Below, piece after piece: positions 1 to 19,859 of a stretch of 32,000 bases of DNA. The notes under the pieces were generated by a model. That model searched no databases. It was given only the letters and a program-made list of their open reading frames with translations, and was not told the DNA's origin. Both the position numbers and the translations under genes were made by a program. Source of the stretch: Alkalilimnicola ehrlichii MLHE-1 (GTDB lineage Bacteria; Pseudomonadota; Gammaproteobacteria; Nitrococcales; Halorhodospiraceae); NCBI RefSeq assembly GCF_000014785.1, contig NC_008340.1, positions 870,001 to 902,000 of the forward strand, written 5' to 3'. Each line of letters opens with the position of its first letter. The first letter of the stretch is position 1.

Positions 1-677
1 TGTTTCAGATGGACCGGGACGACTTCATCCTCCGCCAGGCCGGGCAATACGCCACCACCGCCGAGGAACAGGAGGCCCGATACGAGAACATCGGCGGTGC
101 CCGCCACCGCGGTCTTGAACTGGCCCTGAGCGGCGAGGCGGGGCAGCGGGTGAGCTGGGGGGCGGCCTACACCCTGCTCGATGCCCGGTTCACCGATTAC
201 GACAATTTCAACCTGGCGCTGGGGAACGCCCGCGGGGAGTTCCTGGGCGAGTGCGACCAGGTCACCCTGGACGACCCGCGCAGCCAGTACTGCGTGGAAC
301 GCCACGACAACAGCGGCAACCGCATCCCGCGGGTACCGCGCCACACCCTCAACCTGCTGGTGGATTTCCACCTGACCCCGGCCTTCACCCTGACCACGGA
401 GAGCCACACGGTCTCCTCCTGGTTCGCAGATGAACTCAACGAGTTCGAACTCTCCGGTCACACCGTCTTCAACCTGGTGGGCAACTACCGCCAGCGCCTG
501 GGCCGGGTGGATCTGCGCGCGTTCCTGCGCGTGGACAACGTCTTCGACCAGTGGCACTACGAGCGCGCCTCGGCCTTCTACGACAACAACCAGGACGGCG
601 AGTACGACTGGGAGGACGTCACCTTCCTGGTGAACCCCGGGCGCACCTGGACCGCCGGTCTGGAGGCGCGCTTCTGA
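1..677 (+). CDS. TonB-dependent outer-membrane receptor, C-terminal portion (gene starts upstream of the window)
   Basis: The frame is open from the window edge (TTT CAG precede the first ATG at 9). Beta-strand periodicity with G/Y/N-rich turns. The C-terminus ...NPGRTWTAGLEARF ends in Phe, the classic barrel-closing strand of TBDRs. Stop TGA 675-677. Confidence 0.8.
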   Translation, partial: FQMDRDDFILRQAGQYATTAEEQEARYENIGGARHRGLELALSGEAGQRVSWGAAYTLLDARFTDYDNFNLALGNARGEFLGECDQVTLDDPRSQYCVERHDNSGNRIPRVPRHTLNLLVDFHLTPAFTLTTESHTVSSWFADELNEFELSGHTVFNLVGNYRQRLGRVDLRAFLRVDNVFDQWHYERASAFYDNNQDGEYDWEDVTFLVNPGRTWTAGLEARF

Positions 678-1354
678 TGGCAGGCGGGGTTGGCGGGCTG
701 GTGGCCGAGGGGCTCACCGGCATGACGCTGCCGGCTGCGCTGGCGCTCGGACTGGTCTACGGGGTCAGCGCCTGCGCCGTGGTCTGCCTGCCCTTTCTCG
801 GGCCGGTGCTGTTCGCCACCGGTGAGGGGCCGGGGCGCGCCTGGCGCCGGCTGCTGCCCTTCTCGCTGGGCCGGATCGCCGGTTACGCCGGGATGGCCGG
901 CCTCTCGGCACTGGTCGGGGCGGTGCTGCTGGAGGGGCTCGGCCGGTGGCCCGCCTGGCTGCTGGGCGGTGCCGCACTGGTGCTGGCCGGTTACCTGGCC
1001 TGGGGCGGGGGCGGCGCCAGTGATCGGGGTTGTGCCCGGCGCGGCGGTGCCGGCGCCGTACCGATGACCGGCGGGCTCTTCGTGCTGGGCCTGGGTATGG
1101 CCCTCAATCCGGCCTGCGCGTCCCTGCTGCTGGTGTTGCTCTCCGCCGCCGCCATGGGGTCGGTCAGCGAGGGGGTGTTATTGGGCCTGACTTTCGGGCT
1201 GGGCGTCTCGGTGGGGCCCTTTCTGGTCTTCGGTGTGGTCTTCGCCCAGCTCGGCGCGGCGGTTCATCAATGGCTCTGGCGCTGGCGCGTGGCGCTGCGT
1301 CGCGGTGCCGCGCTGCTCCTGGGGAGTTTCGGTGCGGCCACCGTCTGGTTATAG
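677..1354 (+). CDS. CcdA/DsbD_2-family polytopic membrane protein (thiol-disulfide transfer or UreH-like metal permease)
   Basis: ATG 677 overlaps the receptor stop (ATGA). About six hydrophobic helices. The first helix carries SACAVVCLPFLGP (Cx3C then LP), as in CcdA/DsbD membrane domains. The ORF-track start at 551 lies inside the upstream gene. Confidence 0.55.
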   Translation: MAGGVGGLVAEGLTGMTLPAALALGLVYGVSACAVVCLPFLGPVLFATGEGPGRAWRRLLPFSLGRIAGYAGMAGLSALVGAVLLEGLGRWPAWLLGGAALVLAGYLAWGGGGASDRGCARRGGAGAVPMTGGLFVLGLGMALNPACASLLLVLLSAAAMGSVSEGVLLGLTFGLGVSVGPFLVFGVVFAQLGAAVHQWLWRWRVALRRGAALLLGSFGAATVWL

Positions 1355-1411
1355 GGGCGTGGGGCTAGGCCCCATCACCCAACACACATTGAAATGGGGG
1401 GATTGCTTGCG

Positions 1412-2422
1412 ATGTCTGTCTCTTGGCCTACCCGTCTGTGGGGGGCGCTGGTGTTACTGGCGCTGTTGGGCCCGTGGGGCGCGGCCCAGCCGGTGGAGGA
1501 GGCCGGTCCACTCTGGTTGTCGGATGCCCCGCCCAATGAGGCCTATGCGCAGCGGCTGCGCCGCAGCCACGGCGGTGCGGTGGAGATGGGCCGGGGCGGC
1601 AGCACCGCCAAGCGGCTCTGGCTGCGCCATGGCGCGGTGCCGGAAACCGCCGGCTACACGGACGAGGCGGCCGCGGAGGGGTTCGATTTCCGGGTGACCA
1701 CCCCGGCGGGGGAGGCCGAGCGGCTGCGCCCCTTTGTCGACGAGGCCGGGGTGGGGCTGCACTTTCCGATACCGGAGGAGGGCTTCTATAACGTCTACGC
1801 CACCCGCCGACAGGTCCGGGACGGGGTGCTGGCGGTGGAGGTGGTCAAGCATGAGTTGCTGCGCCACCTTTGCTCCGAGGGCCACGACTATCCCATGACG
1901 CTGGTGGCGCCGCGCCACCTGCCGGAGCTCCCGCTGGAGATCATCCGGCTGCGCCAGCCGGATGAGGATTTCCATACCCGGCTCCACTCCGGTGACACCC
2001 TGCGCTTTCGGGTCCTGCGCCACGGGCAACCCCTCGCCGGGGCGACCGTCCGGCTGGTGAGCCAACGGGGCTGGCGCAACCGTGCGGTCACCGACGCGGA
2101 CGGGGAGGTGGCCTTTGAGCTGATCCGTGACTACTACCCCGACTGGCCGGAGTTCCGCCGTCGCCACCGTGACCGTTTCCTGGTCATCGCCGAGCACCAG
2201 GAGGCGCGCGAGGGCTCCCACGCCGGTGACGCCTACCAGGCCGCGCGCTACACCGTGACGCAGCCGGGCTTCTACACCCCGCCGTCCCGGGAGTACCGCA
2301 GTTATGCCTACGGGTTGAGCGTTGCCGGCACGGCGGCGCTGGTGGTGGCCGTGTTCACGTATGGCTATCGGCGCCGGCGCTGGAACCCACCCCGGGAGGA
2401 GGCCTTCGATGAACGCGATTAG
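1412..2422 (+). CDS. Exported, C-terminally membrane-anchored protein; DUF4198/transthyretin-like beta-sandwich suspected
   Basis: Signal peptide MSVSWPTRLWGALVLLALLGPWGAAQP. ATG 1412 is preceded by GGGGGGA; an alternative ATG lies at 1394. The segment GQPLAGATVRLVS...TDADGEVAFEL resembles DUF4198/CarboxypepD_reg-type domains. C-terminal TM helix GLSVAGTAALVVAVFTYGY is followed by RRRRW. Confidence 0.55.
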   Translation: MSVSWPTRLWGALVLLALLGPWGAAQPVEEAGPLWLSDAPPNEAYAQRLRRSHGGAVEMGRGGSTAKRLWLRHGAVPETAGYTDEAAAEGFDFRVTTPAGEAERLRPFVDEAGVGLHFPIPEEGFYNVYATRRQVRDGVLAVEVVKHELLRHLCSEGHDYPMTLVAPRHLPELPLEIIRLRQPDEDFHTRLHSGDTLRFRVLRHGQPLAGATVRLVSQRGWRNRAVTDADGEVAFELIRDYYPDWPEFRRRHRDRFLVIAEHQEAREGSHAGDAYQAARYTVTQPGFYTPPSREYRSYAYGLSVAGTAALVVAVFTYGYRRRRWNPPREEAFDERD

Positions 2423-3422
2423 GCACCGTATCCGGCGCTTTCTGGATGGGGCGGACATCCGCCGCTTTCGCTTCTGGGTGCAACTGGCCGCCTTTGTGCT
2501 GCTGACCTATGGCGGTTATCTTGCCATCGACTTCGGCAGCAGCCTGCCGACCTTCTCCTGCGTGTTCAATCAGGAGGGGCGGGCCGGCGTCTGCTACCTG
2601 TTCCCGCTGCAGCACCACACCCAGATCAGCTGGGATACCGTCTTCGGCTGGCGGGGCGTGATCCTGGTCACTGGCCTGGTCACCTTCGTCGCCTGGCTGA
2701 TCTTCCTGAACAAAGCCTGGTGTGGCTATGTCTGCCCCCTGGGCACGATCCAGGACTGGCTGACCCGGCTGCGCCAGGCCCTGGGCATCCGCTACACCGC
2801 GCTCAGCGAGACCACCCTGCGCCGGATCCGGCCGGTAAAGTTCGTCCTGCTGGCGCTGCTCATCGCGCTGCCGCTGTTCATCGTCAACCCGATCGTCGGG
2901 GCGACCCTGCCCGATGATGCCAGCGTGCCCTTCTGCAAGATCTGCCCGGCACGCATGGTGATGCCGCTGTTCACCGGCGATGTCTCGCAGCTCAGCGTGG
3001 ACTTCTCCACGGTCACCGCCATGGCCTTTACGGCGGTGGGCATGGCCATCACCGGTTTGTTTTTTGTCGGGGCCTTCATGCGGCCGCGTTTTTTCTGCCT
3101 CTTCTGCCCCATGAGCGCGCTGCACTATCTGTTCAAGCCCATCGGGCTGCTGCGCCTGCGCAAGACCGGTGACAAGTGCACCCGCTGCGGCAACTGCTAC
3201 CGGGTCTGCGATATGCAGATCAAGGCCATCGCCGACGACGTCGAGCGCCGGCACATCATGACCGACGACTGCATGATGTGCCTGAAGTGCGTCGCCGCCT
3301 GCCCGGAGCGCGATGCCCTGCAGGCCCGCTTCATGGGCATTCCCATCTACCGCTCCACGGAGGAGGGGTTCGAGCGGCGCTTTGCCCGCGCCACCCGCCA
3401 AGAGCACGAGGATCAGCGATGA
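2409..3422 (+). CDS. NapH/MauN/YccM-type membrane-bound 4Fe-4S polyferredoxin
   Basis: ATG 2409 overlaps the upstream gene by 14 nt. Several TM helices with CxxxCP motifs (CGYVCPLG, CLFCPMS). C-terminal double ferredoxin signature CTRCGNCYRVC ... CMMCLKCVAACPE. Confidence 0.75.
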   Translation: MNAIRHRIRRFLDGADIRRFRFWVQLAAFVLLTYGGYLAIDFGSSLPTFSCVFNQEGRAGVCYLFPLQHHTQISWDTVFGWRGVILVTGLVTFVAWLIFLNKAWCGYVCPLGTIQDWLTRLRQALGIRYTALSETTLRRIRPVKFVLLALLIALPLFIVNPIVGATLPDDASVPFCKICPARMVMPLFTGDVSQLSVDFSTVTAMAFTAVGMAITGLFFVGAFMRPRFFCLFCPMSALHYLFKPIGLLRLRKTGDKCTRCGNCYRVCDMQIKAIADDVERRHIMTDDCMMCLKCVAACPERDALQARFMGIPIYRSTEEGFERRFARATRQEHEDQR

Positions 3423-4681
3423 GCCGCACCCGCGAGATCATCCACAAACGCCACGGCATGGAGTCCAAGGAGACCTTGCGCAAGCTGGTGCACGAGTTCC
3501 CCGACAACCCCGCCGGGATGGACTACTTCTACGCCCTTTTCGAGCGGGCCTACTGCGATGGCGAACCGCTCCACGAGGGCAGGCCGGTGGTGGGTACCCT
3601 CTGCGTGCAGGCCCCGGATGAATTGGTCCGGGCCTGTGGGGGGGTGCCGGTCCGGCTGTGCAACGGGGCCTACGCCCTGGACCAGGTGGGGGCGGAGCAC
3701 CTGCCGGCGCGCAGTTGCCCGCTGGTGCGGGCCACCCTGGGGGCGTTCGAGAGCCGGGCGGTGGCGCCCATGGATCAGTTGAGCCTGGTGATCAACCCCA
3801 CCACCTGCGATCAGAAGAAAAAGGCCGCCGAGCACATCGCCAGCCTGGGGTATGAGGTGTACAGCCTGGAGTTCCCGCCGGTGAAGCACAGCGAGCAGGC
3901 CCGGGAATACTGGCGCAGTTCCGTGCGCCGGTTCGCCCACAGCCTGCCGCGCTACACCGGGCGCAAGCTCACCCGCCGCCGGCTTCGCCGTGCGCTGCAC
4001 GAGGTGGACCGGGCCCAGGCGGAGTACCGGCGGCTGCAGCGGCTGCGCCAGGCCCGGCCGACCCCGCTCTTCGGGAAGGATGCCTTCCTGGTGACGGGGG
4101 CGTACTTCTTCGATGACCTCGGGCGCTGGACCGAGGCCCTGCGGGCGCTCAACGACGAGCTGGAGCAGCGGGTGGCCGACGGCTTCGCCGCCGCCCAGTC
4201 GCGCGCCCCGCGCATCCTCTTTACCGGGTCCCCGCCGATCTTCCCCAACCTCAAGCTGCCCATGCTCATTGAGCAGTCGGGGGCCATCGTGGTGGCCGAC
4301 GAGGTCTGCTCCGCCAACCGGATGCTGCACGACCGGGTCGCGGTGGACGAGTGGTTTCTCTACGACATGGTGGATGCCATCGCCGACCGCTACCTCAAGC
4401 CCTGCACCTGTCCCATCTTCGACACCAGCGAGGACCGCCGCCGCCGGCTGCTGGAACTGGCCCGTAGCCACCATGTGGACGGCGTGGTCTACCAGGCCTT
4501 CGCCGGCTGCCAGGTCTACGAGATGGAGCACCGCGCCATCGCCCAGGCCCTGCAGGCGGAGCAACTGCCGGTGATGTACATCGAGACCGACTACAGCCCG
4601 GACGACATGGGGCAACTCTCCACCCGCGTGGAGGCATTCGTGGAATCACTCAAGGCGAAACGGAGGCGGCGAACGGCATGA
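3419..4681 (+). CDS. 2-hydroxyacyl-CoA dehydratase/benzoyl-CoA reductase family protein (HgdB/BcrB/BadD-like), single subunit; possibly double-cubane-cluster type
   Basis: ATG 3419 overlaps the upstream stop (ATGA). 420 aa with 10 Cys (e.g. TLCVQAP, RACGG, RSCPLVR, TTCDQKKK, EVCSANR, KPCTCP, AGCQVYE). The general layout is that of HGD-D family proteins. It sits directly upstream of, and is coupled to, an HgdC-type activase. Confidence 0.7.
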   Translation: MSRTREIIHKRHGMESKETLRKLVHEFPDNPAGMDYFYALFERAYCDGEPLHEGRPVVGTLCVQAPDELVRACGGVPVRLCNGAYALDQVGAEHLPARSCPLVRATLGAFESRAVAPMDQLSLVINPTTCDQKKKAAEHIASLGYEVYSLEFPPVKHSEQAREYWRSSVRRFAHSLPRYTGRKLTRRRLRRALHEVDRAQAEYRRLQRLRQARPTPLFGKDAFLVTGAYFFDDLGRWTEALRALNDELEQRVADGFAAAQSRAPRILFTGSPPIFPNLKLPMLIEQSGAIVVADEVCSANRMLHDRVAVDEWFLYDMVDAIADRYLKPCTCPIFDTSEDRRRRLLELARSHHVDGVVYQAFAGCQVYEMEHRAIAQALQAEQLPVMYIETDYSPDDMGQLSTRVEAFVESLKAKRRRRTA

Positions 4682-5502
4682 GCTTTTACATTGGCATTGA
4701 CATCGGGTCCACGGCCATCAAGGTGGCCCTGGCGGATGCGGACGGTGAGAAGGTGGCCAGCCGGGTGGACCCTACCGGGGCCGACTTCCGGGCCAATGCC
4801 GTGCGCAGCTTCGAGCGGTTGATGACGGACAACGGCGTCCGCCGCCGGGAGGTCCGTTACATCCTGGCCACCGGCTACGGCCGCCGGCTGTTCCGCGAGG
4901 CGGACGACTCCATGAGCGAGATCACCGCCAACGCCGTGGGCGCCCACCGGGTGGGGCAGGCCTACGGCGGGGTGGCCACCGTGATCAATATCGGCGGTCA
5001 GGACACCAAGGCCATCGGTCTGGATGACGACGGCCATGTGAACAAATTCGCCATGAACGACAAGTGCGCCGCCGGCACCGGACGCTTTCTGGATGTGGCC
5101 GCGCGCAACCTGGAGATCGGCCTGAAGGAACTGGGCGACTACCACCACCGGGTGCAGGGCATGCCCGCCACCCTGAACAGCACCTGTGCGGTCTTTGCCG
5201 AATCGGAGATCATCGGCCTGTTGGCCACCGGCCACGGCAAGCCGGAGATCGTCGCCGGCATCCACGCCGCCATCGCCAAGCGCACCGCACGCCTGGCCCG
5301 CCGGGTGGGTCTGGGCGAGCGGGTGCTCTTTGACGGCGGGCCGGCGCTGAACACCGGCCTGGTGGCCGCCTTGGAGGAGGCGCTGATGCGTGAGTTGATC
5401 ATCCCGCCCGAGCCGCAGACGGTGACCGCCTACGGTGCCGCGCTGCTGGGGCGCGATATCGACCGCTCCGAGCGGGCGCTGGCGGAGGAGGAGTTGCCCT
5501 GA
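4678..5502 (+). CDS. BcrA/BadF/HgdC-type ATPase, activase (electron-injecting 'archerase') for the dehydratase-family protein
   Basis: ASKHA-fold motifs IGIDIGSTAIKVAL, ATGYGR, INIGGQDTKAI, NDKCAAGTGRFLD and CAVFAESE. ATGA overlap with the upstream gene. Confidence 0.9.
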   Translation: MSFYIGIDIGSTAIKVALADADGEKVASRVDPTGADFRANAVRSFERLMTDNGVRRREVRYILATGYGRRLFREADDSMSEITANAVGAHRVGQAYGGVATVINIGGQDTKAIGLDDDGHVNKFAMNDKCAAGTGRFLDVAARNLEIGLKELGDYHHRVQGMPATLNSTCAVFAESEIIGLLATGHGKPEIVAGIHAAIAKRTARLARRVGLGERVLFDGGPALNTGLVAALEEALMRELIIPPEPQTVTAYGAALLGRDIDRSERALAEEELP

Positions 5503-5533: not shown

Positions 5534-6547
5534 TCACGCCACCTGCCAGGCGGCCCCCGCCTCCAGCAGCCGCTGCACGTCGCCCGCGGGCACCGGGGGC
5601 GGTTCCGCGTGCGCCGCCGCCTGTGGCTCGGGGTCGCAATAGAGGACACCCAGCGCGACCGGGAACTCCGGCGGCTGCAGTTGCGCCAGCAGGCCCGCCA
5701 GCAGAGGGTTGCGCTCATCGTGCACCAGCAGCTCGTCCTCGGGCACGCCGTCGTCGGTGCCCACGCGGACCACCTCCAGGGTCAGGGTGCGCGGGTTGAG
5801 ACGAAGCCCCTTTTCACCGTCGCGGCCGTAGCGCATGGGCGCCCCGTGGACCAGCCGCAGGGTGTTGTCGGGGGCGCGGTCCTTATCGGTGATCTCGGCG
5901 AAAACCCGGTCGTTGTAGACAATGCAATTCTGATACAGCTCCACCAGTGAGGCACCACGATGCCGGTAAGCCCGCTCCAGCACCTCCGGCAGGGTCTTCT
6001 GGTCCGTGTCCACCGCCCGTGCGACGAACCGTGCGCCGGCCCCCAGGGCGAATCGGGCGGGCACCACCGGATCGTCGGTGGAACCCGCGGCACTGGTGGG
6101 CGAGCGGGTGCCGGGCCGTGACGTGGGCGATGACTGCCCCTTGGTCAGCCCGTAGATCTCATTGTTGAACAACAGGATCTGCAGGTCGGTATTGCGCCGC
6201 AGGGCATGCAGCAAGTGGTTGCCGCCAATGCTCAGGCCATCGCCGTCACCGGTGACCACCCAGACATCCAGCGTCGGGTTGCCCAGTTTCACCCCCGTCG
6301 CCACCGCCGGTGCGCGGCCGTGAATGGTATGGAAGCCGTAGGTCTCCAGGTAGTAGGGCAGGCGCGACGAGCAACCGATGCCCGATATGAACACCTGTTG
6401 CTCCCGCGGGGCGTCCAGCCCGGCCAGCGTTTTCTGGATGCCCTTGAGGATGGCGTAGTCCCCGCAGCCCGGGCACCAGCGCACCTGCTGATCCGATGCG
6501 AAGTCCGCGGGCTTGCGTTGCTGCAGGACTGAGACGGCCGTACTCAT
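5534..6547 (-). CDS. korB: 2-oxoacid (2-oxoglutarate):ferredoxin oxidoreductase, beta subunit (TPP-binding)
   Basis: N-terminal ...VRWCPGCGDYAILKG..., then GIGCSSRLPYY and GDGDGLSIGGNH (TPP motif). 4-nt overlap with the upstream alpha-subunit gene. Confidence 0.9.
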   Translation of the reverse strand: MSTAVSVLQQRKPADFASDQQVRWCPGCGDYAILKGIQKTLAGLDAPREQQVFISGIGCSSRLPYYLETYGFHTIHGRAPAVATGVKLGNPTLDVWVVTGDGDGLSIGGNHLLHALRRNTDLQILLFNNEIYGLTKGQSSPTSRPGTRSPTSAAGSTDDPVVPARFALGAGARFVARAVDTDQKTLPEVLERAYRHRGASLVELYQNCIVYNDRVFAEITDKDRAPDNTLRLVHGAPMRYGRDGEKGLRLNPRTLTLEVVRVGTDDGVPEDELLVHDERNPLLAGLLAQLQPPEFPVALGVLYCDPEPQAAAHAEPPPVPAGDVQRLLEAGAAWQVA

Positions 6548-8430
6548 GCGGTTGCCTCCAGGATCGATGTGATGGCGTCTTCGATTCGGCCCACCTTGAA
6601 GGGTTGGCCCGTGACCTGCCCCAGGCTGCGGGCGTCGATCCCGAAACGGGCCCGCAGGACGTTGACCAGTTGGCCATTGTTCAGCTCCGGGACCAGGACG
6701 TGGTCGTAGCGTCCGAGCAGTTCGCCGAGGTTGGCCGGGAAGGGGCTCAGGTAACGCAGGTGGATATGGTCCACTGCGCTGCCTTGCGCACGCGCGCGGT
6801 GAACGGCCTGGTTGAGCGCACCGTAGGTGGAGCCCCAGCCCACCACGGCGAGGCGACCGTCACCGTCGCCCGCGGCCACGGTCTGTGCCGGGATGTCCCG
6901 GGCGATGCCGGCGACCTTGGCCGCGCGGGCATCCGTCATGCGCTGGTGGTTTTCCGGTTCATAGGCGATGTGGCCACTGCCCTCCGCCTTCTCCAACCCG
7001 CCGATGCGGTGCTCGAGGTCGGGTGTTCCGGGCCGTACCCAGGGTCGGGCACCGGTGGCCGGGTCCCGTTGGTAGGGTTGGAAGCCTTCGGGGTCGTCGG
7101 TGCGGAAATGGACCGGAAAGTGCGCCAGGCCGTTCACATCGGGCACCCGCCAGGGCTCTGCGGCGTTGACCAGATAACCATCCGCCAGCACCATGACCGG
7201 GACCATATAGCGGGTCGCCAGGCGCACGGCCTCCACCGCCACCTCAAAGCAGTCCCCGGGGGTGGCGGCCGCCAGCACTGCGAGCGGGGCATCGCCGTGC
7301 CGCCCGTAAAGCGCCTGGTAGAGGTCGGACTGCTCGGTCTTGGTGGGCAGGCCGGTCGAGGGTCCGCCACGCTGGCAGTTGACCACGACCAGCGGCAGCT
7401 CGGCGCTGACCGCCAGCCCGAGGGCCTCGGTCTTCAGGGCGATGCCGGGGCCGGAGCTGGCCGTGACCCCCAGGGCACCGCTGTAGGAGGCACCGATCGC
7501 GGCACAGGCGGCGGCGATCTCATCTTCGGCCTGCAACGTCCGCAAGCCCTCGCATTCGATATCGGCCATCAAATGCAACAGGTTGGACGCGGGGGTGATG
7601 GGGTAGGAGGCGAAAACCATGGGCAGGTCCGCCCGGGCCGAGCCCGCCAGCAGCCCCCAGGTCAGCCCCTCGGCACCGGTCACGGTCCGGTAGAGACCGG
7701 GGGCGCGCTGCCGGGGTGCCACCGCTCGCCGGGGCAGCGTGGCGCCGAGTTCCGCCGTCTCGCCGTAGGCGTGGCCCGCCAGCAGCGCCGCGCGGTTGGC
7801 CTCGCGCAGGCGGTCACGGGCTGCGAACTTCTCGTCGATCCAGGTCAGCGTGGCCGCCGGGTCGTGGCCGTACATCCAATAGGTCAGGCCCAGTGCCCAG
7901 AGGTTCTTGCAACGCAGGGCCTCGGCCTGGGAGAGACCGAAGGGCTTGACCGCCTCCTTGGTCAACCGGGCGATATCCAGTTCAATCACCTGGAAGCCAT
8001 CGAGGGTGCCGTCATCCCGCGGGTCCTGTGCGTAGCCGGCCTTGGCCAGGTTGCGCTTGGAGAAGCCACCGCTGTTCAGAATGACCGTACCCGCCGCTGC
8101 CAAGTCCGGCAGATTGACTGCCAGTGCGGCCGGGTTCATGGCCACCAGGACCTCCGGGGCATCGCCCGGGGTGGCCACGCGATCAGCCCCAAACTGGATC
8201 TGAAAGGACGACACGCCGAAGGGGGTCCCCGCCGGTGCCCGGATCTCCGCTGGAAAACTGGGCAGGGTGGCGAGATCATGACCGGCCATGGCCGTGGTTC
8301 GGGTGAATTGGCTGCCGGTGAGCTGCATGCCATCGCCGGAGTCGCCGGCGAATCGCACCACCACCGCGCGGTCGGTGGACGCTGCGGTGGTGAGGGTGGC
8401 GCTGGTGTGGTCCTGCTCCTGCTGGGGCAT
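6544..8430 (-). CDS. korA: 2-oxoacid (2-oxoglutarate):ferredoxin oxidoreductase, alpha subunit
   Basis: 628 aa counted from the second Met (MPQQEQ...), which follows GGAGGA by 6 nt. Fused gamma/alpha-type domains (RFAGDSGDGMQLTG..., ASYPITPAS..., GGPSTGLPTKTEQSDL). Confidence 0.9.
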   Translation of the reverse strand: MPQQEQDHTSATLTTAASTDRAVVVRFAGDSGDGMQLTGSQFTRTTAMAGHDLATLPSFPAEIRAPAGTPFGVSSFQIQFGADRVATPGDAPEVLVAMNPAALAVNLPDLAAAGTVILNSGGFSKRNLAKAGYAQDPRDDGTLDGFQVIELDIARLTKEAVKPFGLSQAEALRCKNLWALGLTYWMYGHDPAATLTWIDEKFAARDRLREANRAALLAGHAYGETAELGATLPRRAVAPRQRAPGLYRTVTGAEGLTWGLLAGSARADLPMVFASYPITPASNLLHLMADIECEGLRTLQAEDEIAAACAAIGASYSGALGVTASSGPGIALKTEALGLAVSAELPLVVVNCQRGGPSTGLPTKTEQSDLYQALYGRHGDAPLAVLAAATPGDCFEVAVEAVRLATRYMVPVMVLADGYLVNAAEPWRVPDVNGLAHFPVHFRTDDPEGFQPYQRDPATGARPWVRPGTPDLEHRIGGLEKAEGSGHIAYEPENHQRMTDARAAKVAGIARDIPAQTVAAGDGDGRLAVVGWGSTYGALNQAVHRARAQGSAVDHIHLRYLSPFPANLGELLGRYDHVLVPELNNGQLVNVLRARFGIDARSLGQVTGQPFKVGRIEDAITSILEATA

Positions 8431-8701
8431 GACATCTCCTCCGGGCATAGTGACGACTCACTCGAATCCGATGCAGGCTCCCGGATTCGAGAAGGCCAGC
8501 CTACTCGGAGAGGCTTGCTCCGACAAAGACTATAAAGACGTATTTTTATCTCTCCGGGTTAGGATGGGCCCGGCGCAGGCTGGGGGCGGCCGCGGTGGTG
8601 CCCAGGCGGATGACCGACGGGACGGGTGACGGGGTGGTGGAGGTCCGGGCCTCCAGGGGTACGCCGACCAGCAACGATAGCCGAGCGCTGCGAGCGGGCG
8701 T

Positions 8702-8808: not shown

Positions 8809-8902
8809 TTCATAGAACCCCCGTGCCATGCGGGTCACAGTAATAAAAACAGAAAGATAGGCGTGTTACCAAGGAATGGTAGGGTTCTGTTGTGAAAGAT
8901 TG

Positions 8903-8932
8903 TGGTACCATGATGGTCACAGATTGGTCACA
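8903..8932 (+). promoter_or_regulatory. Putative arm-type recombinase/RDF binding sites, attL arm
   Basis: TGGTACCA(8903) tga TGGTCACA(8914) gat TGGTCACA(8925): three octamers phased at 11 bp between attL and the int start. The 23-nt string GATGGTCACAGATTGGTCACACG is repeated exactly at 17657-17679. Confidence 0.6.
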
Positions 8933-8947
8933 CGGGAGCCTGTCGCC

Positions 8948-10282
8948 ATGCCCGCCAAAACACTGGACACCAGCATTACTGATGCCGCCACCCGGCGCTT
9001 CCTGAAGAATGAGCCGGAGCGGGCAACCTTATGGTGTGAGCGGATTACCGGGTTTCACATACTCAAGGTAAAGACCGGGGGCAGTTGGCGGTATCGGTAT
9101 CAGACCGCAGACGGTAAGCGCCGCGTGGCCACCATCGGGCGCTATCCGGCCATGAAACCGCAGCAGGCCGCCGAGAAGGCACTAGCCTGGCGCAATGAGA
9201 ACGTGGACGCGCTGGCAGTAAAGGCCAAACGCACCCGCAATGCCTTGACCGAAGCGCAGAAGGCCGAGCAACGCACGCTGCGGGCCTATCTCGAAGGGCC
9301 GTACGCTAGGTACCAGGAGCGCAAGCGCAGCGGCGCGGAAACCCTGCGCCTCATTCGGCACAACTTCACCGACTGGCTAGACCGGGACATGGCCACGTTG
9401 GACAGCGCAGACGTGAAGGCGTGGCAGGCCAAGCGTGAAGCCGAGGGCCGGGCATACTCCACGCTGCAACGCGCCTATGGTGCGCTGAAAACGGCCCTGA
9501 ACCGCGCCGCGAAACATGACGACCTGCTAGACGCGAACCCCCTGCGAGATGTTCACCTTGAGGCCCCACGGTTTGACGAGGTGGACAAGCAGGTAAAAGC
9601 GGAGCAGACCGCCCGCCGCCTGCTGAGTGACGAGGAAGTGACCGGGCTGCATGAGGGCTTGCGAGCCTTTGCGGATGAGTTGCGCCGCCAGCGCCGTAAC
9701 AGCCGAGCGCATGGCAAGCCGGATCTGCCCGACCTGGACGCGGTGGACTACCCGCATTGGTTTATTCCTTTCTGCCACGTTGCCCTTTATACCGGACTGC
9801 GACCGGGTGACTTGTACGCGCTCACCTGGGCGGAGCTGAACCCCACGTTCGGGCGGCTGAACGTGATTCCTCAGAAAACCCGTCACCACCGCAACCCCGC
9901 CCGCGTGACAATGGATTTAGTGCCGGAGTTGCTGGAGGTGGTGCGGGCCTGGTGGGCGCAGCAGGGCAAGCCTGACACCGGGCTAGTGTTCCCCTCACCC
10001 GTTACCGGCTTGCGGATGGACAAGAAAGCCCACCTGAAAGCCTGGCGACGTGTGAAGCGCCTTGGTGGGCTGCCCGACGATCTGGACTTCTACACCTTGC
10101 GGCACAACTTTATTTCCAAGCTGGTGGCCGCTGGCGTGCCCCTGCTGACAGTGGCGCAACTGGTGGGCCACAAATCGGCGGGGATGATCGAACAACATTA
10201 CGGCGACCTGTGCCCCACCGTAGCGGCTGATGCGTTGGCCGTGTTTTCCAAGTCTGTGACACCGAAGCAGGAGGCGGTATGA
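8948..10282 (+). CDS. int: Tyrosine integrase, P4-type (N-terminal DUF4102 arm-binding domain)
   Basis: N-terminus ...ATRRFLKNEPERATLWCERITGFHILKVKTGGSWRYRYQTADGKRRVATIGRYPAMKPQQA matches the P4-integrase arm domain pattern. Catalytic signature TGLRPGDL ... YTLRHNFISKL ... LVGH ... EQHY. Start taken at ATG 8948; the ORF-track start at 8876 runs over the arm sites. Confidence 0.9.
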   Translation: MPAKTLDTSITDAATRRFLKNEPERATLWCERITGFHILKVKTGGSWRYRYQTADGKRRVATIGRYPAMKPQQAAEKALAWRNENVDALAVKAKRTRNALTEAQKAEQRTLRAYLEGPYARYQERKRSGAETLRLIRHNFTDWLDRDMATLDSADVKAWQAKREAEGRAYSTLQRAYGALKTALNRAAKHDDLLDANPLRDVHLEAPRFDEVDKQVKAEQTARRLLSDEEVTGLHEGLRAFADELRRQRRNSRAHGKPDLPDLDAVDYPHWFIPFCHVALYTGLRPGDLYALTWAELNPTFGRLNVIPQKTRHHRNPARVTMDLVPELLEVVRAWWAQQGKPDTGLVFPSPVTGLRMDKKAHLKAWRRVKRLGGLPDDLDFYTLRHNFISKLVAAGVPLLTVAQLVGHKSAGMIEQHYGDLCPTVAADALAVFSKSVTPKQEAV

Positions 10283-10797
10283 CGGCAGGATGGGCAACCC
10301 CGTTTAACTGGACGGATGAGCAGGCCCGCGAAGTGGTGGCGGAGGTTGGCGAGCGCACGGGCACGCAGGAGCAGCGGGAGCAGTTCGCCCGCGCAGTGGG
10401 AGCAGTGCTGAAGCGCGGCCAAACGCGGCTGTTTATGCCCGACCTGGCAGGCCAGGCCAAGGGCATGCACCAGGGGGCAGCCACGGTACTAGAATCGCTC
10501 AACGCCGAAGCGGCTGACCTTACCGACGAGGAAGCCGACCAGTTGCGTGCGCTGGTGGCTAAGGTGGCGGAGGCCACAGCCGAGGCGGGCACGATGGAGC
10601 GGCGGGGAGCCAGCAAGAAAGACCACCAGACCCTAGCCGAGCTGGCGCAGGTATGGCGCTTTGCGTTCGGGCGCTGGCCAAGTGCCAAGCCCACCGCCCC
10701 CTTCATGCGCGTGGTGCTGTGGATCAATGCACGAAATTACGCCGATCTGCCGACCGGAAACGGCGCTAAGGCTTATATCGGCCAGGGGACCAAATAA
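10279..10797 (+). CDS. Hypothetical protein, translationally coupled to int
   Basis: ATG 10279 overlaps the int stop (ATGA) and is preceded by AGGAGG (10269-10274). 172 aa, acidic and helical, no motif I recognise. Followed by an AT-rich stretch. Confidence 0.6.
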   Translation: MTAGWATPFNWTDEQAREVVAEVGERTGTQEQREQFARAVGAVLKRGQTRLFMPDLAGQAKGMHQGAATVLESLNAEAADLTDEEADQLRALVAKVAEATAEAGTMERRGASKKDHQTLAELAQVWRFAFGRWPSAKPTAPFMRVVLWINARNYADLPTGNGAKAYIGQGTK

Positions 10798-10875
10798 ATA
10801 ATTTTTTCCGGTGACGCCCGTTTTTCCGCCCCTTAGTTCAATGGCCCTACGTTCACAAACGCGAGGGCCATATTC

Positions 10876-11064
10876 ATGTCAGCACAACCCGCCTTTATGC
10901 GGCCACAACAGGCCGCCGATTACCTGGGCATTACGCGCCGCCACCTGTACAACATCGCGGAGCGTGACCCCGAGTTTCCCCGCAAGATTGTATTTTCTAC
11001 CCGCTGCGTAGGGTGGCGCCGGGAAGCCATCGACGAATGGCTAGCCGCCAAGGAGGCGGAATGA
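10876..11064 (+). CDS. alpA: AlpA-family helix-turn-helix regulator / excisionase-like protein
   Basis: 62 aa. RPQQAADYLGITRRHLYNIAERDPEFPRKIVFSTRCVGWRREAIDEWL is the typical Phage_AlpA pattern. Confidence 0.8.
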   Translation: MSAQPAFMRPQQAADYLGITRRHLYNIAERDPEFPRKIVFSTRCVGWRREAIDEWLAAKEAE

Positions 11065-11255
11065 CCTGGATCACCCCCCACGCTGCCGTGTCCGAATACG
11101 GCATCCCCTTGGAGCGTATCGAGGCCGCCATTCTGGCCGGTGAAATAGCCGTTCGGGTGGCGTGCGGTGCGCGGGTGATTGGCCGCGCCGAGGTGGAAGC
11201 GCTTCGATTGAAAATGATGAGCGAACGCCGGGAGGCGTGCGACGGATGCGACTAG
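11061..11255 (+). CDS. Second small excisionase/MerR-like HTH protein
   Basis: ATG 11061 overlaps the alpA stop and is preceded by AAGGAGG. 64 aa. ...AVSEYGIPLERIEAAILAGEI... resembles excisionase-type HTH proteins. Confidence 0.55.
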   Translation: MTWITPHAAVSEYGIPLERIEAAILAGEIAVRVACGARVIGRAEVEALRLKMMSERREACDGCD

Positions 11256-13249
11256 TAAATGAAAACGCCCCCGCCGGCGGGCAACCGGCGAAGGGCGCAA
11301 ATGTGAGCGGGCGGCTCAATGGGAATTATAGCAGCACCGACACCGCCGCGCATCTTGCCGAAAACGGTATTCCGGTATTCCCGGTAAACCTGTCCGAGCC
11401 GAATGCAGACGGGAAACGGGAAAAGACCCCGTTAACAAAGCATGGCCATCTCGACGCCACAACAGACGCCGAAACGGTGCGGCAATGGTGGCGGCGTTGG
11501 CCGAAAGCTATACCCGCTGTTCCGACTGGGAAGGCATCCGGCATTGATGCCCTGGACGTAGACCCCGACGGTTACGAATGGGCCGCCGAGCATTCCGATT
11601 CACTGATGATGGCCCAGCGCATTCACCACACTGAGCGCGGAAAGCATTACCTGTTTCGACACACCGATGGCGTGCGCAATTCCAACGGGAAGATTAGCGC
11701 CGGTATCGATGTGCGCGGGGAAGGCGGGTGGATCGTCTGGTGGCCTGCAAAGGGCCTAGAAGCGCATGGAGAGCTTGCAGACGTATCCGACGCACCCGAA
11801 GCCCTTGCCGATCTGATGCGTGGCGTGCGGAGCAGCACAGAGCGTGACAGCGCTCCTGTTGCTGCCGATGGGGCCGTGATTCCCGAGGGCCAACGGGATA
11901 GCACCTTGACACGGGAGGCCGGGCGACTGCGCCGGTATGGCTACAGCGAATCGGAAATGCTGGCCGCGTTGCACGCGATCAACTCCCACCGTTGCCAGCC
12001 GCCGCTAGACGCCGATCAAGTGGAGAAGATTGCCCGAAGCGTTGGCCGATACGATCCGGCGCATGAGTTCACGCCAGACAGCGATGAACCGGCCAGCCCT
12101 GAGCCGTTCGACCTTGTGGCGGCCAGTGTGGGCGATCTGATACGCACGCCACCGCCGCCCCGCCGTTGGCTGGTGCATGAGCGCCTGCCGCTGGACGTGG
12201 TGGCCCTGCTGGCGGCTGCTGGCGGTACGGGTAAGAGCATGGCCACCTTGCAGCTCGCGGTGAGCACCGCCACCGGCTGGCCTTGGTTCGATATGGAGAT
12301 CAGCGAGCCGGGGGCGGTGCTGATGGTGTCGGCAGAGGATGACCGCGACGAAATCCACCGCCGCCTGTCCGTGGTGCTGGAGCATTACGCCGACGATGCC
12401 GACCCGTTCGCCGTTGACGCGTTCAGCGAGTACCACGACCAGCTAGAGCGCCGCCTGTTCATTCTGGACAGGGTGGGCGAGGACAACCGCCTAACCGCCA
12501 AGATCGACCGGGAGACGTTGCGCACGGGGTTTGCCAATCGGGTGATTGCCACCGCCGAGGCGATGCCCGAGCCGCCCGTGATGATCGTGCTTGATCCCCT
12601 GAGCCGGTTCGATGGTGGCGACCCGAACGACAACAGCGACGGAACCCGCTTGATCGAGGCCGCCGAGCATATCCGCAAGGCCACGCGGGCAACCGTGCTG
12701 CTACCCCACCACGTCGCCAAGTCCAGCATGAAGGATTCCAGCGCCGGACAGGAGGCCGTGCGCGGTGCGTCGGGCCTGGTGGATGGTGCCCGGTGGGTGG
12801 GCCTGATGCGCGGGATGAATGACGAGGACGCGAAGGAGCACGGGATCAGCGAGGACGATGCCGGGCGCTATGTGCGCTTCAACACCCCGAAAGCCAACTA
12901 TTCCGCCCCGTGGCCCGGTCTGTGGCTGGAGCGGCGCAAGGGTGGGGTGTTGGCGGCCACGCACCTGAAGCCGCAAAAACTGGCCAACAAGGAGCGCAAG
13001 GCCGATGCGGAATATCAGGAGGTGGTGCGCCGTATCACCAAGCTGTTGCAGGACAAGGGGGCGATGCCCAAGCGCCGGATTGAGGACGAATGGGGCGGGA
13101 CAACCAACGTCTTGAAGGCCGGGCAAAAGCGCGTGCGCGACACCATCCACCGGGCGCTAGACGAGGGGCATCTCGTGGTGCAGACCACCGGCGAGGGCAA
13201 GGAGGTTATTGGTGTCCCCGACGCCTGGTTAGAGAGGGCCGGGCAATGA
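11246..13249 (+). CDS. Bifunctional primase-polymerase / PriCT / AAA_25 (RepA-like) replicase
   Basis: Start taken at ATG 11246 (MRLVNEN...). PrimPol N-domain: GIPVFPVN...KTPLTKHG..DAT...WW...VPTG..SGIDALDVD. PriCT-1-like: IPEGQRDSTLTREAGRLRRYGY...CQPPLDADQVEKIARSV. Walker A: AAAGGTGKS. Confidence 0.85.
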   Translation: MRLVNENAPAGGQPAKGANVSGRLNGNYSSTDTAAHLAENGIPVFPVNLSEPNADGKREKTPLTKHGHLDATTDAETVRQWWRRWPKAIPAVPTGKASGIDALDVDPDGYEWAAEHSDSLMMAQRIHHTERGKHYLFRHTDGVRNSNGKISAGIDVRGEGGWIVWWPAKGLEAHGELADVSDAPEALADLMRGVRSSTERDSAPVAADGAVIPEGQRDSTLTREAGRLRRYGYSESEMLAALHAINSHRCQPPLDADQVEKIARSVGRYDPAHEFTPDSDEPASPEPFDLVAASVGDLIRTPPPPRRWLVHERLPLDVVALLAAAGGTGKSMATLQLAVSTATGWPWFDMEISEPGAVLMVSAEDDRDEIHRRLSVVLEHYADDADPFAVDAFSEYHDQLERRLFILDRVGEDNRLTAKIDRETLRTGFANRVIATAEAMPEPPVMIVLDPLSRFDGGDPNDNSDGTRLIEAAEHIRKATRATVLLPHHVAKSSMKDSSAGQEAVRGASGLVDGARWVGLMRGMNDEDAKEHGISEDDAGRYVRFNTPKANYSAPWPGLWLERRKGGVLAATHLKPQKLANKERKADAEYQEVVRRITKLLQDKGAMPKRRIEDEWGGTTNVLKAGQKRVRDTIHRALDEGHLVVQTTGEGKEVIGVPDAWLERAGQ

Positions 13250-13458
13250 GCGGGCAGCGGGCAAGCAACGGGCAACGGGCAAGCGGGCAAATTGCCCGCC
13301 GGAAGTGCCTGCCCGCCTTAGAGCGCACAACCACGCGGGTTTCCAGCGGGCAACGGGCAAAACCCTACTTTGCCCGCGCCTATCGGGAAACCCGCGCCAC
13401 ACAAGGGCGGGCAGCGGGCAACGGGCAACCCCCTACGGGGGCGGGGCAGTAATTGCCC
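13241..13458. repeat. Iteron cluster, putative origin of replication
   Basis: At least 17 copies of GGGCA(A/G) / its complement TTGCCC / CTGCCC, mostly as (A/G)CGGGCAA. Sites seen at 13241, 13252, 13259, 13270, 13277, 13285, 13292(rc), 13309(rc), 13348, 13355, 13370(rc), 13409, 13416, 13423, 13444, 13453(rc). Two palindromes: GCGGGCAAATTGCCCGC and GGGGCAGTAATTGCCC. The cluster starts at the replicase stop codon. Confidence 0.65.
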
Positions 13459-13532
13459 GCCCCAACGGGTTGCGGCCTGAAAGCGCCGCAATACCCCCGG
13501 TGGTTCATGGATCAACTGATGAGGAACACCCC

Positions 13533-13727
13533 ATGCGAAACGACGAAGGCACCACCCTGGCCGCGCAGATCCTTGTGCAGATCGAGCAGGCGCAGTTAGC
13601 AGGCGTTCACCCCCATGACGTGACGCGGGCACTGTCCGCCACGCTGATGGAGACAACGGCGAAGGGAGACGAGGACCGGGTGGCATCGGTGCTGCGGGCA
13701 ACGGCGGATGCACTGGTGAGGCGGTGA
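13533..13727 (+). CDS. Hypothetical small protein (64 aa)
   Basis: ATG 13533 lies 6 nt after GAGGAA. Helical sequence with no recognisable motif. Confidence 0.4.
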   Translation: MRNDEGTTLAAQILVQIEQAQLAGVHPHDVTRALSATLMETTAKGDEDRVASVLRATADALVRR

Positions 13728-13884
13728 AGGTGTTACGAAAGGTAACGCTTGCGCTCGAATCAGCCGCCGGTGGCGGGGCAGGGAGGCCCTAGACCCCCAC
13801 AGAACGAAAGACCCGTACCCTAATGGGGTAGGGTTAGGGAATTGTAAGTACCTGTTTGTGAATGCAATAATGCCGCCACCGTGG

Positions 13885-13908
13885 TATGCTGTGACCAATA
13901 TGTGACCA
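13885..13908 (+). promoter_or_regulatory. Possible extended -10 promoter (TGGTATGCT) overlapped by an operator made of two phased TGTGACCA octamers
   Basis: TGnTATGCT at 13882-13890. TGTGACCA at 13890-13897 and 13901-13908 is the reverse complement of the arm-site octamer, with the same 11-bp phasing. Located about 20 nt upstream of the ATG at 13930. Confidence 0.4.
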
Positions 13909-13929
13909 CCAGCGGAAACTATCACGGCA

Positions 13930-14301
13930 ATGGGCACCACCACACAAGGCAAACCGCGCCAGATACCCCGGCAATACTCCAACGATTGGTTGGAGCGCCT
14001 GGACGGGCGCACGGCGATTGCCAAGGCGGTGAATGATCGCCTTCATCATTTGGTGCGTGACCTTGGAGGCCCCGACGCCCTCAGCTACCAGGAGCAAAGT
14101 ATCTGCCGCCGCATTGTCTGGCTGGAGGCGCAGATAGAAAGCCGGGAGGTGGCGCTAGCGAAGGGTGAGGATGTAGACGAGGCCCGCCACGTTGCCAACA
14201 TCAACACGCTTACCGGGTTGCTGAAGGCGGTGGGCCTGGAGCGCCGCTCGAAAGATGTGCCCGACCTTGCGCAATACCTGGCCAGCAAGGAGGCGGGCTA
14301 A
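13930..14301 (+). CDS. Hypothetical protein; terminase small subunit suspected from position only
   Basis: 123 aa, helical (LDGRTAIAKAVNDRLHHLVRDLGG...LSYQEQSICRR...). Lies two genes upstream of TerL. No diagnostic motif. Confidence 0.35.
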   Translation: MGTTTQGKPRQIPRQYSNDWLERLDGRTAIAKAVNDRLHHLVRDLGGPDALSYQEQSICRRIVWLEAQIESREVALAKGEDVDEARHVANINTLTGLLKAVGLERRSKDVPDLAQYLASKEAG

Positions 14302-14537
14302 TGGTCATGTGCGCTGCCTGTAAGCACTTCCCCGGCAACGGCCAACTGTGTCCGAAGGCCAAGCGCCACGCCACGCACCACCCGCGCAAGTGTGACAAAT
14401 TCACCGGCCACCGCCTGAGCTTCGCGGTGCTGCAAGCCCGTTCCCTCGCCACGTTCGCCCGCCGCCACCTGACCCCGGCCAGTTACCAGCGGGTATTGCG
14501 CGATGCCCACCGTCTGGCGGAAGAGGTGAGGCGATGA
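14301..14537 (+). CDS. Small Cys/His-rich protein (putative zinc-binding)
   Basis: 78 aa. C4-x2-C7-x9-C17-x13-C31 with a His-rich stretch (RHATHHPRKC). Start overlaps the upstream stop and the stop overlaps the TerL start. Confidence 0.45.
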   Translation: MVMCAACKHFPGNGQLCPKAKRHATHHPRKCDKFTGHRLSFAVLQARSLATFARRHLTPASYQRVLRDAHRLAEEVRR

Positions 14538-16063: not shown

Positions 16064-16104
16064 TTGATGAAAGCGGGTTTTCACTTCAACCGAGGTAACG
16101 AGTT

Positions 16105-17244: not shown

Positions 17245-17400
17245 TGAACACCGCCCGCTCCCGAGGCGGCAATATCGGGAGAGTTCCCCGCAGCCACCGC
17301 GGCGGCGCAAGCCGACAGGGTGGACGCGGCAACGCCCTGGCCGTGTCTCAGAACAAGGGCGGGCGGTATGGTTCCACCGCTGCGAAGAGACGGACCCACG

Positions 17401-17433
17401 CCCCCGAGCGAGAGGCTGCGGGGGCATCTTTTT
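17401..17433 (+). terminator. Intrinsic terminator after the capsid gene
   Basis: CCCCCG(17401-06)...CGGGGG(17419-24) stem followed by CATCTTTTTG. Confidence 0.5.
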
Positions 17434-17449
17434 GTATGGAGGTGCAACC

Positions 17450-17697
17450 ATGCTGACAGCCGAGGAACGTCTATGGGTGGCCGCACTGGCCCGGTATGTA
17501 CAGGACGCCCGTGCGCCCAGTGCCTACGGTGACGAGGGCGAGGCGCTGGCGGACCTGGAGGGCGATGCCGTGATACTGCGCCGCCTGGCGGAGCTGGCGG
17601 GCTATGACCCCGAGGCCACGGTGGTGGCGGTGAGGCGGGAGGTGTTGTGTTACCCCGATGGTCACAGATTGGTCACACGAAGCCCTGAGCGTGTGAC
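17450..17697 (+). CDS. Hypothetical protein (possible head-completion/adaptor); the 3' end is undefined because the frame has no stop before attR
   Basis: ATG 17450 lies 6 nt after GGAGGT. The frame stays open through the arm sites, attR and the tRNA until 18217. The end coordinate given is the element boundary, not a stop codon. Confidence 0.35.

Positions 17698-18560: not shown

Positions 18561-19859
<1,299 letters not shown>

Follow-up and report, generated by a model that had tools for sequence, protein, structure and literature searches.

The first 5,502 positions of the window, by which we mean the whole stretch of 32,000 nucleotides analysed from Alkalilimnicola ehrlichii MLHE-1, are occupied by six tightly packed genes. 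Open reading frame (ORF) and profile analyses place all six on the + strand, at the coordinates given in the preliminary description of this DNA, and we number them 1 to 6 in that order. Gene 1 (1..677) is the 3' end, 224 codons long, of a gene for a TonB-dependent receptor (PF00593), gene 2 (677..1354) encodes a six-segment membrane protein resembling DsbD_2 and CcdA (PF13386), and gene 3 (1412..2422, alternative start 1394) encodes an exported protein with a predicted DUF4198 fold and a C-terminal transmembrane (TM) anchor, recognised through PF10670, an AlphaFold2 (AF2) model and Foldseek. Gene 4 (2409..3422; Fer4_5 and Fer4_10) specifies a NapH-like polyferredoxin with four predicted TM segments, gene 5 (3419..4681; PF06050 and NF040772) a putative class-I double-cubane-cluster protein (DCCP), and gene 6 (4678..5502; PF01869 and TIGR00241) an ATP-dependent activase of the HgdC/BcrAD type, that is, a DCCP reductase or 'archerase'. 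These genes constitute one conserved, translationally coupled set. Genes 3 and 4 overlap by 14 nt (2409-2422; ATG at 2409, TAG at 2420-2422), and ATGA overlaps join genes 4 and 5 (3419-3422) and genes 5 and 6 (4678-4681), all as first described. The junction at 675-679, also reported as ATGA, in fact reads TGATG, with the stop at 675-677, the start at 677-679 and one base in common. For gene 3 the start at 1412 is likelier than that at 1394: GGGGGGA lies 12-18 nt upstream of 1412, and the gene call on L005, a longer copy of the A. ehrlichii locus that includes the flank upstream of the window (its duplicate copy is L006), takes 1412 as well. This start leaves a gap of 57 nt behind gene 2. No convincing internal terminator was detected within the gene cluster.

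We find one gene order in several phyla. When one genome of each species was scanned, 284 stretches encoding relatives came to light, and in the best 80 loci the order gene 3, gene 4, gene 5, gene 6 is kept in 80 of 80, with few gaps, which fall at contig ends. These 80 loci come from Gamma- and Betaproteobacteria, Campylobacterota, Desulfobacterota and Nitrospirota, and an arrangement that keeps one order across phyla is far beyond chance. With metagenome contigs counted along with genomes, well over a hundred sequences carry the conserved cluster. Its hosts include Thiohalomonadaceae, Sedimenticolaceae, Methylococcales, Gallionellaceae, Sulfuricella, Thiobacillus, Rhodocyclaceae, Campylobacterota, Desulfurivibrio, Desulfuromonadaceae and Nitrospirota, and among cultivated bacteria Alkalilimnicola ehrlichii MLHE-1, Thiohalomonas denitrificans, Azovibrio restrictus, Azonexus caeni and Sulfurovum mangrovi. 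Where the flanks are complete (51 loci), a DsbD_2 gene is present in 44, mostly directly after the ATPase gene, with a few more hidden in merged ORFs. At least one TonB receptor is found in 44 of the same 51, and in most loci the receptor stop lies no more than about 170 nt from gene 3; ExbB is encoded in 25 of the 51, and ExbB/ExbD adjoin in about half. The TonB receptor is therefore frequent, not obligatory. Three look-ups of DCCPs of about 60% identity, in Thiohalomonas denitrificans, Candidatus Nitricoxidivorans and Candidatus Thiodiazotropha, returned the same core with DsbD_2, accompanied by TonB receptors in two of the three and by TonB-ExbBD and FecR in one. The A. ehrlichii order, in which receptor and DsbD_2 genes come first, is a minority arrangement common to Sulfurovum mangrovi, where the RefSeq annotation of the cluster is generic throughout.

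In the reverse direction, a metagenome scan with gene 3 patterns gave 25 loci; the polyferredoxin gene adjoins in 24 of the 24 that can be tested, and the DCCP gene is present in all 23 that extend far enough. The start/stop overlaps recur in L001, L003, L004 and L112. A linkage that fails to be conserved, which the preliminary description had named as the finding that would count against a single unit, was looked for and not found: synteny, overlaps and fusions all tie the uptake set to the reductase. Its remark that this is not a textbook arrangement holds too. We found no publication describing an envelope uptake set together with an ATP-driven low-potential reductase, and a literature search returned no paper linking DCCP, HgdB-like or activase genes to TonB receptors.

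Does such a linkage mean that envelope and cytoplasmic proteins serve one pathway? In other settings DCCPs form soluble two-component systems that lack envelope partners (PMC7317905), some of the loci have no TonB receptor, and many hosts are lithotrophs that oxidise donors outside the cytoplasm. On these grounds the reductase pair might act on a cytoplasmic small molecule and merely be co-regulated with metal uptake, or the envelope proteins might supply electrons from periplasmic lithotrophic oxidation. We regard this as improbable, and the same is true of its particular form in which co-regulation arises from a need of the [8Fe-9S] enzyme itself for the imported metal. In testable loci the DUF4198-like protein never occurs without polyferredoxin and DCCP, stop/start overlaps tie the envelope genes to the cytoplasmic ones, and the conserved cytoplasmic tail of the gene 3 protein suggests physical contact.

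Other recurrent neighbours (RND, MacAB, two-component systems) were uninformative. A membrane protein of 408 residues follows the cluster in 8 loci (for example L032, 12805-14031); by eye its sequence resembles PepSY-type proteins of the putative ferric-reductase kind, and it has no match among the NCBIfam models. About 5 kb downstream of the Azovibrio restrictus cluster, a 5' ureB small RNA (sRNA) match scores 130.6 bits (L069, 17306-17595); genes for urease, a Ni enzyme, probably lie near that cluster, which could be coincidence.

At the cytoplasmic end of the set, the preliminary description had called the gene 5 product a dehydratase-family Fe-S protein. The family, PF06050, stands; the type does not, given that gene 5 passes NF040772 ('double-cubane-cluster-containing anaerobic reductase') with 371.8 bits against a cutoff of 350, which makes it a DCCP-type small-molecule reductase and not a CoA-ester dehydratase. 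It aligns with the DCCP of Carboxydothermus hydrogenoformans (PDB 7YYL/6ENO) at E 9e-68, query residues 21-412 against chain residues 30-422, with all seven motif Cys matched and a length of 420 residues against 421-422. The Cys spacing, C62-X18-C81-X18-C100-X29-C130-X166-C297-X33-C331-X32-C364, agrees with the seven-Cys motif of DCCPs (CX19CX18-19CX29CX166-170CX32-34CX32C) except at the first interval, 18 instead of 19. All of these residues, C62, C81, C100, C130, C297, C331 and C364, are 100% conserved in 78 sequences, and one of them is the Cys that stands at the mouth of the channel and is not a ligand. Besides these seven, C329 is invariant and C46 94% conserved. The relatives retrieved are 55-87% identical to gene 5, and the conserved stretches TTCDQKKK and LKPCTCPI of this clade served as scan patterns. 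Gene 5 is thus predicted from its sequence to be a class-I DCCP, the [8Fe-9S] reductase component. Its full-length match to 6ENO includes the N-terminal extension that narrows the substrate channel, and its length places it in class I, whose narrow channels suggest small-molecule substrates (PMC7317905). DCCPs are nitrogenase-like, ATP-driven enzymes that reduce acetylene, and their physiological substrates are explicitly given as unknown (PMC7317905; 10.1101/2022.07.06.499078).

Gene 6 matches PF01869 with 181.8 bits and TIGR00241 with 229.7 bits (cutoff 125.4), as expected for the ATP-dependent activase of HgdC/BcrA type first recognised here. Its only Cys, C130 and C170, are both 100% conserved in 59 sequences. 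The profile scores, the two Cys per monomer for a bridging [4Fe-4S] cluster and the ATGA overlap with the adjoining DCCP gene all conform to an activase. Selenocysteine at a conserved Cys was considered and rejected: the only in-frame TGA lies at Cys62, a cluster ligand, of the DCCP gene of L102 (~2276-2992), with a frameshift about 45 codons on, and that TGA most likely reflects a poor-quality contig or a pseudogene.

The gene 3 protein barely passes PF10670 (35.5 bits, cutoff 34; profile positions 129-195 of 209) and has no sequence-level match in the PDB. Its AF2 model (pLDDT 85.8) comprises a signal-peptide helix, a beta-sandwich and a C-terminal TM helix at 293-323, in agreement with the earlier view of an exported, TM-anchored beta-sandwich protein. 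Foldseek aligns the model with Zcp (9mhl/9mhm/9mhn; E 6e-12 to 5e-11, target-normalised TM-score 0.68-0.71) and with Ideonella IsDUF4198 (9gcb; E 2e-7); the top structural matches are metal-bound Zcp (Zn, Cu, Co) and Ni-bound IsDUF4198. Both proteins are periplasmic metal binders first characterised in 2025 (PMC12663993, PMC12537917), and DUF4198 gene neighbours include TonB receptors and NikR regulators, according to the IsDUF4198 study (PMC12537917). The 15 closest homologues all keep the residues H53, H152, C154, H158 and H188. The alignment reveals no His near the predicted signal cleavage site, and a conserved cytoplasmic tail, YRRRRW..PxREExFDE. The model therefore points to a DUF4198 fold and to a predicted metal binder with a His/Cys site. 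The family is small and accounts for 254 clusters among 1.84 billion representatives. Campylobacterota carry gene 3 as part of a fusion, in which a second polyferredoxin and multi-TM module stands on its N-terminal side (L112, 8001-10730; L113, 1255-3609; L060, L073 and L086; L115, 7696-9864). In the L112 fusion a NosL copper-chaperone domain and a Met/His-rich loop lie between the two modules; NosL was seen in this one genome.

Gene 2 matches PF13386 (DsbD_2) with 69.9 bits against a cutoff of 24.9, and matches none of the NCBIfam models. In 66 orthologues C33, C37 and C147 are 100% and C119 97% conserved, and C33/C37 and C147 lie within hydrophobic segments, the first and the fourth of the core, as in CcdA/DsbD proteins. 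The family match and the conserved Cys bear out the assignment as a CcdA/DsbD_2-type membrane protein. What this protein carries is ambiguous. The DsbD_2 family and superfamily also include Ni/Co and other metal-ion permeases, the PGAP name of the Sulfurovum homologue is 'sulfite exporter TauE/SafE family', no thioredoxin-like partner occurs among the conserved neighbour families, and we found no literature on PF13386. Judged by its sequence, gene 2 may encode a thiol-disulfide electron carrier or a soft-metal permease.

Gene 4 matches Fer4_5 and Fer4_10 and falls below the NapH/MauN cutoffs (TIGR02163, 74.9 bits against 213; NF007013, 69.6 against 234). The architecture, with four TM segments, Cys-Pro motifs and 2x[4Fe-4S], nevertheless fits the NapH-type membrane polyferredoxin named in the preliminary description, though the NapH cutoff is missed. 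Hydropathy and positive-inside counts give four hydrophobic segments and an N-terminus, middle loop and C-terminus rich in K+R, from which four TM segments with cytoplasmic N- and C-termini are predicted. All 16 Cys are 100% conserved in 81 sequences. Eight of them form two ferredoxin motifs (2x[4Fe-4S]) in the cytoplasmic tail, C105/C109 and C230/C233 are placed at the predicted cytoplasmic membrane face, and the pairs C51/C62 and C176/C179 fall in the two loops poor in K and R, presumably on the periplasmic side. No NapG, NapA or NapB operon partners occur among the recurring neighbour families of 84 clustered loci. Neither gene 3 nor gene 4 has a Pfam match to Fer4_18 or FixG_C at E <= 0.01, and the likeness of gene 4 to CcoG/FixG is one of architecture alone. 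No structural relatives were found in the PDB for the membrane parts of the polyferredoxin and of DsbD_2.

Given this topology, could electrons run outwards? In such a scheme the ATPase and DCCP would be an ATP-boosted source, and electrons would pass through the polyferredoxin to periplasmic Cys sites and to a substrate bound by the DUF4198-like protein. A very stable metal complex or mineral would then be reduced in the periplasm and the ion would enter via DsbD_2, or DsbD_2 would provide thiol reductant. NapH-like modules are described as transmembrane units that transfer electrons for periplasmic reductases, with NosR and PceC as examples (10.1101/2021.01.07.425746), and four invariant Cys of the polyferredoxin lie in its two K/R-poor loops. 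Likewise, the Campylobacterota fusion of polyferredoxin and DUF4198-like protein, once with NosL, mirrors the NosR layout, DsbD-family proteins move reducing power outward, and PepSY-like putative ferric reductases are encoded in 8 loci. On the other hand, passing electrons from an ATP-charged cluster to ordinary ferredoxin-type clusters would waste ATP, no DCCP is known as a relay, and gene 5 retains features of the catalytic type, among them the Cys at the channel mouth. It would also be unusual for a protein inserted by Sec to have an Fe-S site assembled on its periplasmic side, and the topology of the polyferredoxin is a prediction. We consider electron export unlikely, if still the main rival of the reading favoured below.

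The outer membrane importer of the preliminary description is a complete TonB-dependent receptor. Gene 1 matches the barrel domain PF00593 at 2.2e-18 over the C-terminal 224 residues, and the full protein of 757 residues, with Plug (PF07715) and barrel (PF00593), is encoded at L005 4986-7259, its start lying about 1.6 kb upstream of the window. The nearest NCBIfam model is a TonB-siderophore subfamily (203.7 bits, cutoff 223.5), none of the 5 receptors tested reaches a substrate-specific equivalog or subfamily cutoff, and the linked TonB receptors have no conserved Cys, His or Met. In L005 the receptor promoter region measures 430 nt and has a divergent chaperone-usher fimbrial cluster on its other side. 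It contains, in a genome of 68% G+C, a perfect AT-rich palindrome, CTATATAAAAC-N5-GTTTTATATAG (L005 4855-4881, ~1.7 kb upstream of window position 1), which is unique among the 114 loci compared, save for the duplicate copy L006, and is likely an operator of some regulator. Lineage-specific palindromes stand upstream of the operon in L028, L030, L034 and L074 (~2.2 kb before the DCCP gene) and in L031, L047 and L058 (~4.6-5.5 kb). One of them, ATTTCACACAC-N4-GTGTGTGAAAT, belongs to one locus group, mostly Sedimenticolaceae, and another, GACAAATTGTCGCGCGACAATTTGTC, to a second group of Gallionellaceae and one Nitrosomonadales metagenome-assembled genome; operators thus appear to be lineage-specific and not common to all clusters. 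An Rfam search upstream of the A. ehrlichii receptor found no element at E <= 1 (B12, NiCo and Moco riboswitches and RNA leaders).

The receptor is partly similar to heme (165 bits) and B12 (95 bits) models, both below their cutoffs, the gene 5 family is related to benzoyl-CoA reductase subunits, and in one locus, L004, hemCDXY adjoin the cluster, a neighbourhood that is not conserved in the other loci. One could accordingly think of import and reduction of an organic cofactor or tetrapyrrole (heme, corrinoid), or of a CoA-ester or aromatic substrate, in parallel to benzoyl-CoA reductases or corrinoid reductive activators. Both the proposal and the parallel seem to us very improbable. Gene 5 scores far under the cutoffs of the BzdN, BcrC and HadC models while passing the DCCP model, and the channels of a class-I DCCP do not leave room for CoA esters (PMC7317905). 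Of the possibilities raised at the outset, a tetrapyrrole or corrinoid substrate is disfavoured because no cobalamin or other riboswitch was found in the 8 loci searched, the DCCP belongs to the class with narrow channels and its partner in the periplasm is folded like a metal-ion binder.

We favour, tentatively, the reading that the six genes specify one envelope-spanning system for the uptake-coupled reduction of a scarce thiophilic trace metal or metalloid. The TonB receptor would carry the metal or metalloid species into the periplasm, where the membrane-anchored DUF4198-like protein would capture it by its His/Cys site. The species would then cross the inner membrane via the Cys-lined DsbD_2 protein, via the thiol pairs that the polyferredoxin carries on either face, or via both proteins, in a step resembling the MerP > MerT > MerA relay. 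In the cytoplasm the double-cubane cluster would reduce it, after the ATPase has loaded that cluster with single electrons at the expense of ATP. The 2x[4Fe-4S] domain of the polyferredoxin would dock the soluble DCCP/ATPase pair to the membrane and feed the ATPase electrons, from the quinone pool or from ferredoxin. The class-I features and the seven retained Cys argue for catalysis on a small species at the cluster itself, and so does the cost in ATP, which pays only if difficult chemistry happens there. Among the mechanisms put forward in the preliminary description, the reductive processing of an imported metal species fits best, and delivery of electrons from the quinone pool to the activase is possible.

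A question that follows is which element would be handled. Candidates are Cu, Ni, Co, Zn or Se. The NosL fusion and the Met/His-rich loop in L112 hint at Cu, and the DUF4198 precedents and the ureB sRNA match near the Azovibrio locus at Ni, Co or Zn. The Se(0)/selenide couple is very negative. A further lead, to Se, is the finding reported by Haft that high-scoring DCCPs occur almost only in SelD-positive genomes (10.1101/2022.07.06.499078), a lead weakened by the score of gene 5, which is below the 400-bit DCCP set of that study.

Several points weigh against uptake-coupled reduction. Potentials as low as these are not needed by ordinary nutrient metals, NapH-like proteins usually pass electrons toward periplasmic acceptors, which favours electron export, and to our knowledge a quinol-level donor for an archerase is without precedent. 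About 14% of the full-flank loci have no nearby TonB receptor, and the linked receptors belong to several subfamilies with 14-46% identity. The His/Cys set of gene 3 (H53, H152, C154, H158, H188), invariant among its closest homologues, drops to 67-88% in a wider, noisier set of 60. As for the element, no riboswitch reached the gathering score in 7 other loci, which brings the loci covered to 8 altogether. A scan of all loci with Fur, Zur and NikR consensus sequences gave scattered weak matches, none recurring upstream of the clusters, so that the Fur, Nik or B12-riboswitch regulon proposed for checking at the outset was not borne out, neither by a recurrent box in all loci nor by a riboswitch in the 8.

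Beyond the cluster, the activase gene is followed directly by convergent genes for a 2-oxoacid:ferredoxin oxidoreductase, KorB/KorA (5534-8448, - strand). In A. ehrlichii KorAB could be a source of reduced ferredoxin; the idea that it is dedicated to supplying this system was rejected, the genes being adjacent in A. ehrlichii only and in 0 of 80 related loci. The segment at ~8876-17833 is a small integrated element of lower G+C (0.59-0.66) with a tyrosine integrase (8876-10282), a Prim-Pol/AAA_25 primase-helicase (11162-13249) and a phage capsid-family protein (16105-17244), and its end is at tRNA-Val (17757-17833, - strand). Its appearance is that of an island of satellite type or related to phages. 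A capsule/exopolysaccharide cluster at ~18486-29915 encodes a UDP-glucose dehydrogenase, Wzi, Wza, a Wzc-type tyrosine kinase and a Polysacc_synt_2 dehydratase.

If uptake-coupled reduction is true, it would give DCCPs their first physiological role, and the ATPase would be the first of the archerase type wired to the cell envelope. The fixed genomic partners of this clade point to a defined setting, envelope uptake of a scarce metal or metalloid, and since the cluster occurs in cultivated bacteria the question of DCCP function becomes directly testable. The system would also extend the roles of NapH-like polyferredoxins and DUF4198 proteins, as well as the known ways of trace-element acquisition by bacteria at oxic-anoxic interfaces. 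Such a fixed association would surprise a specialist in Fe-S enzymology or metal homeostasis. With somewhat greater reserve than for the uptake-coupled scheme itself, we suggest that it may represent a previously unrecognised class of machine, in which a DCCP and its ATPase are docked to a polyferredoxin and a periplasmic metallochaperone and TonB import is coupled to ATP-driven reduction.

The components belong or come close to known families, and we did not find their assembly described in the literature. For the reductase, the closest known system is the DCCP/DCCP-R pair of C. hydrogenoformans (6ENO, 7YYL), to which gene 5 corresponds end-to-end with its seven Cys, followed by gene 6 with its two cluster-bridging Cys. 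That system is soluble and without envelope partners, whereas here the pair lies in a conserved operon with a polyferredoxin, an anchored periplasmic protein, DsbD_2 and usually a TonB receptor. With NapH, NosR, PceC (RdhC) and CcoG, the polyferredoxin has in common four TM segments, CxxxCP/CxxCP motifs near the membrane and a cytoplasmic 2x[4Fe-4S] domain. As in NosR, with its FMN domain, it is paired, and in Campylobacterota fused, with a periplasmic domain; CcoG, known from the cupric reductase literature, has a periplasmic Ig-like domain in a similar pairing. Unlike members of these families, gene 4 scores well below the NapH/MauN and NosR models, has no NapG, Nos or Rdh partner and carries two extra invariant Cys pairs in predicted periplasmic loops. 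On the cytoplasmic side it is partnered by an ATP-driven reductase, and no other member of the family is known to have such a partner.

Gene 3 resembles Zcp (Neisseria, Zn) and IsDUF4198 (Ideonella, Ni) in its predicted fold, TonB-receptor neighbourhood and conserved His. It differs in lacking the N-terminal His found in 79% of the DUF4198 family (PMC12537917), and in having a TM anchor at the C-terminus, a cytoplasmic tail that is conserved and a Cys that is conserved as well, whereas DUF4198 proteins are typically soluble in the periplasm. Its family is small and separate, and always found beside polyferredoxin and DCCP. An independent precedent for a tie between DCCPs and metal uptake, and the nearest idea in print, is the SAO locus of anaerobes, which is interpreted as handling a soft metal or an organometallic compound and is linked to DCCPs (Haft preprint, 10.1101/2022.07.06.499078). 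There, too, the genomic partner of a DCCP and its activase is an import system with many Cys (or Sec) motifs. SAO, however, belongs to strict anaerobes and works with selenoproteins, a MerB-like lyase and an importer of the ABC type. The two systems have only the DCCP and its activase in common, and no Sec codon was found at conserved Cys positions in the clusters described here. In function, the nearest analogy is the Mer pathway (MerP > MerT > MerA), which likewise combines a metal binder in the periplasm, a membrane protein that has a thiol pair on each face and a reductase in the cytoplasm. The two are without homology, and Mer serves detoxification, uses NADPH and has no TonB receptor, whereas in the system proposed here the reductase would be ATP-driven with an Fe-S active site, and the uptake side resembles nutrient scavenging.

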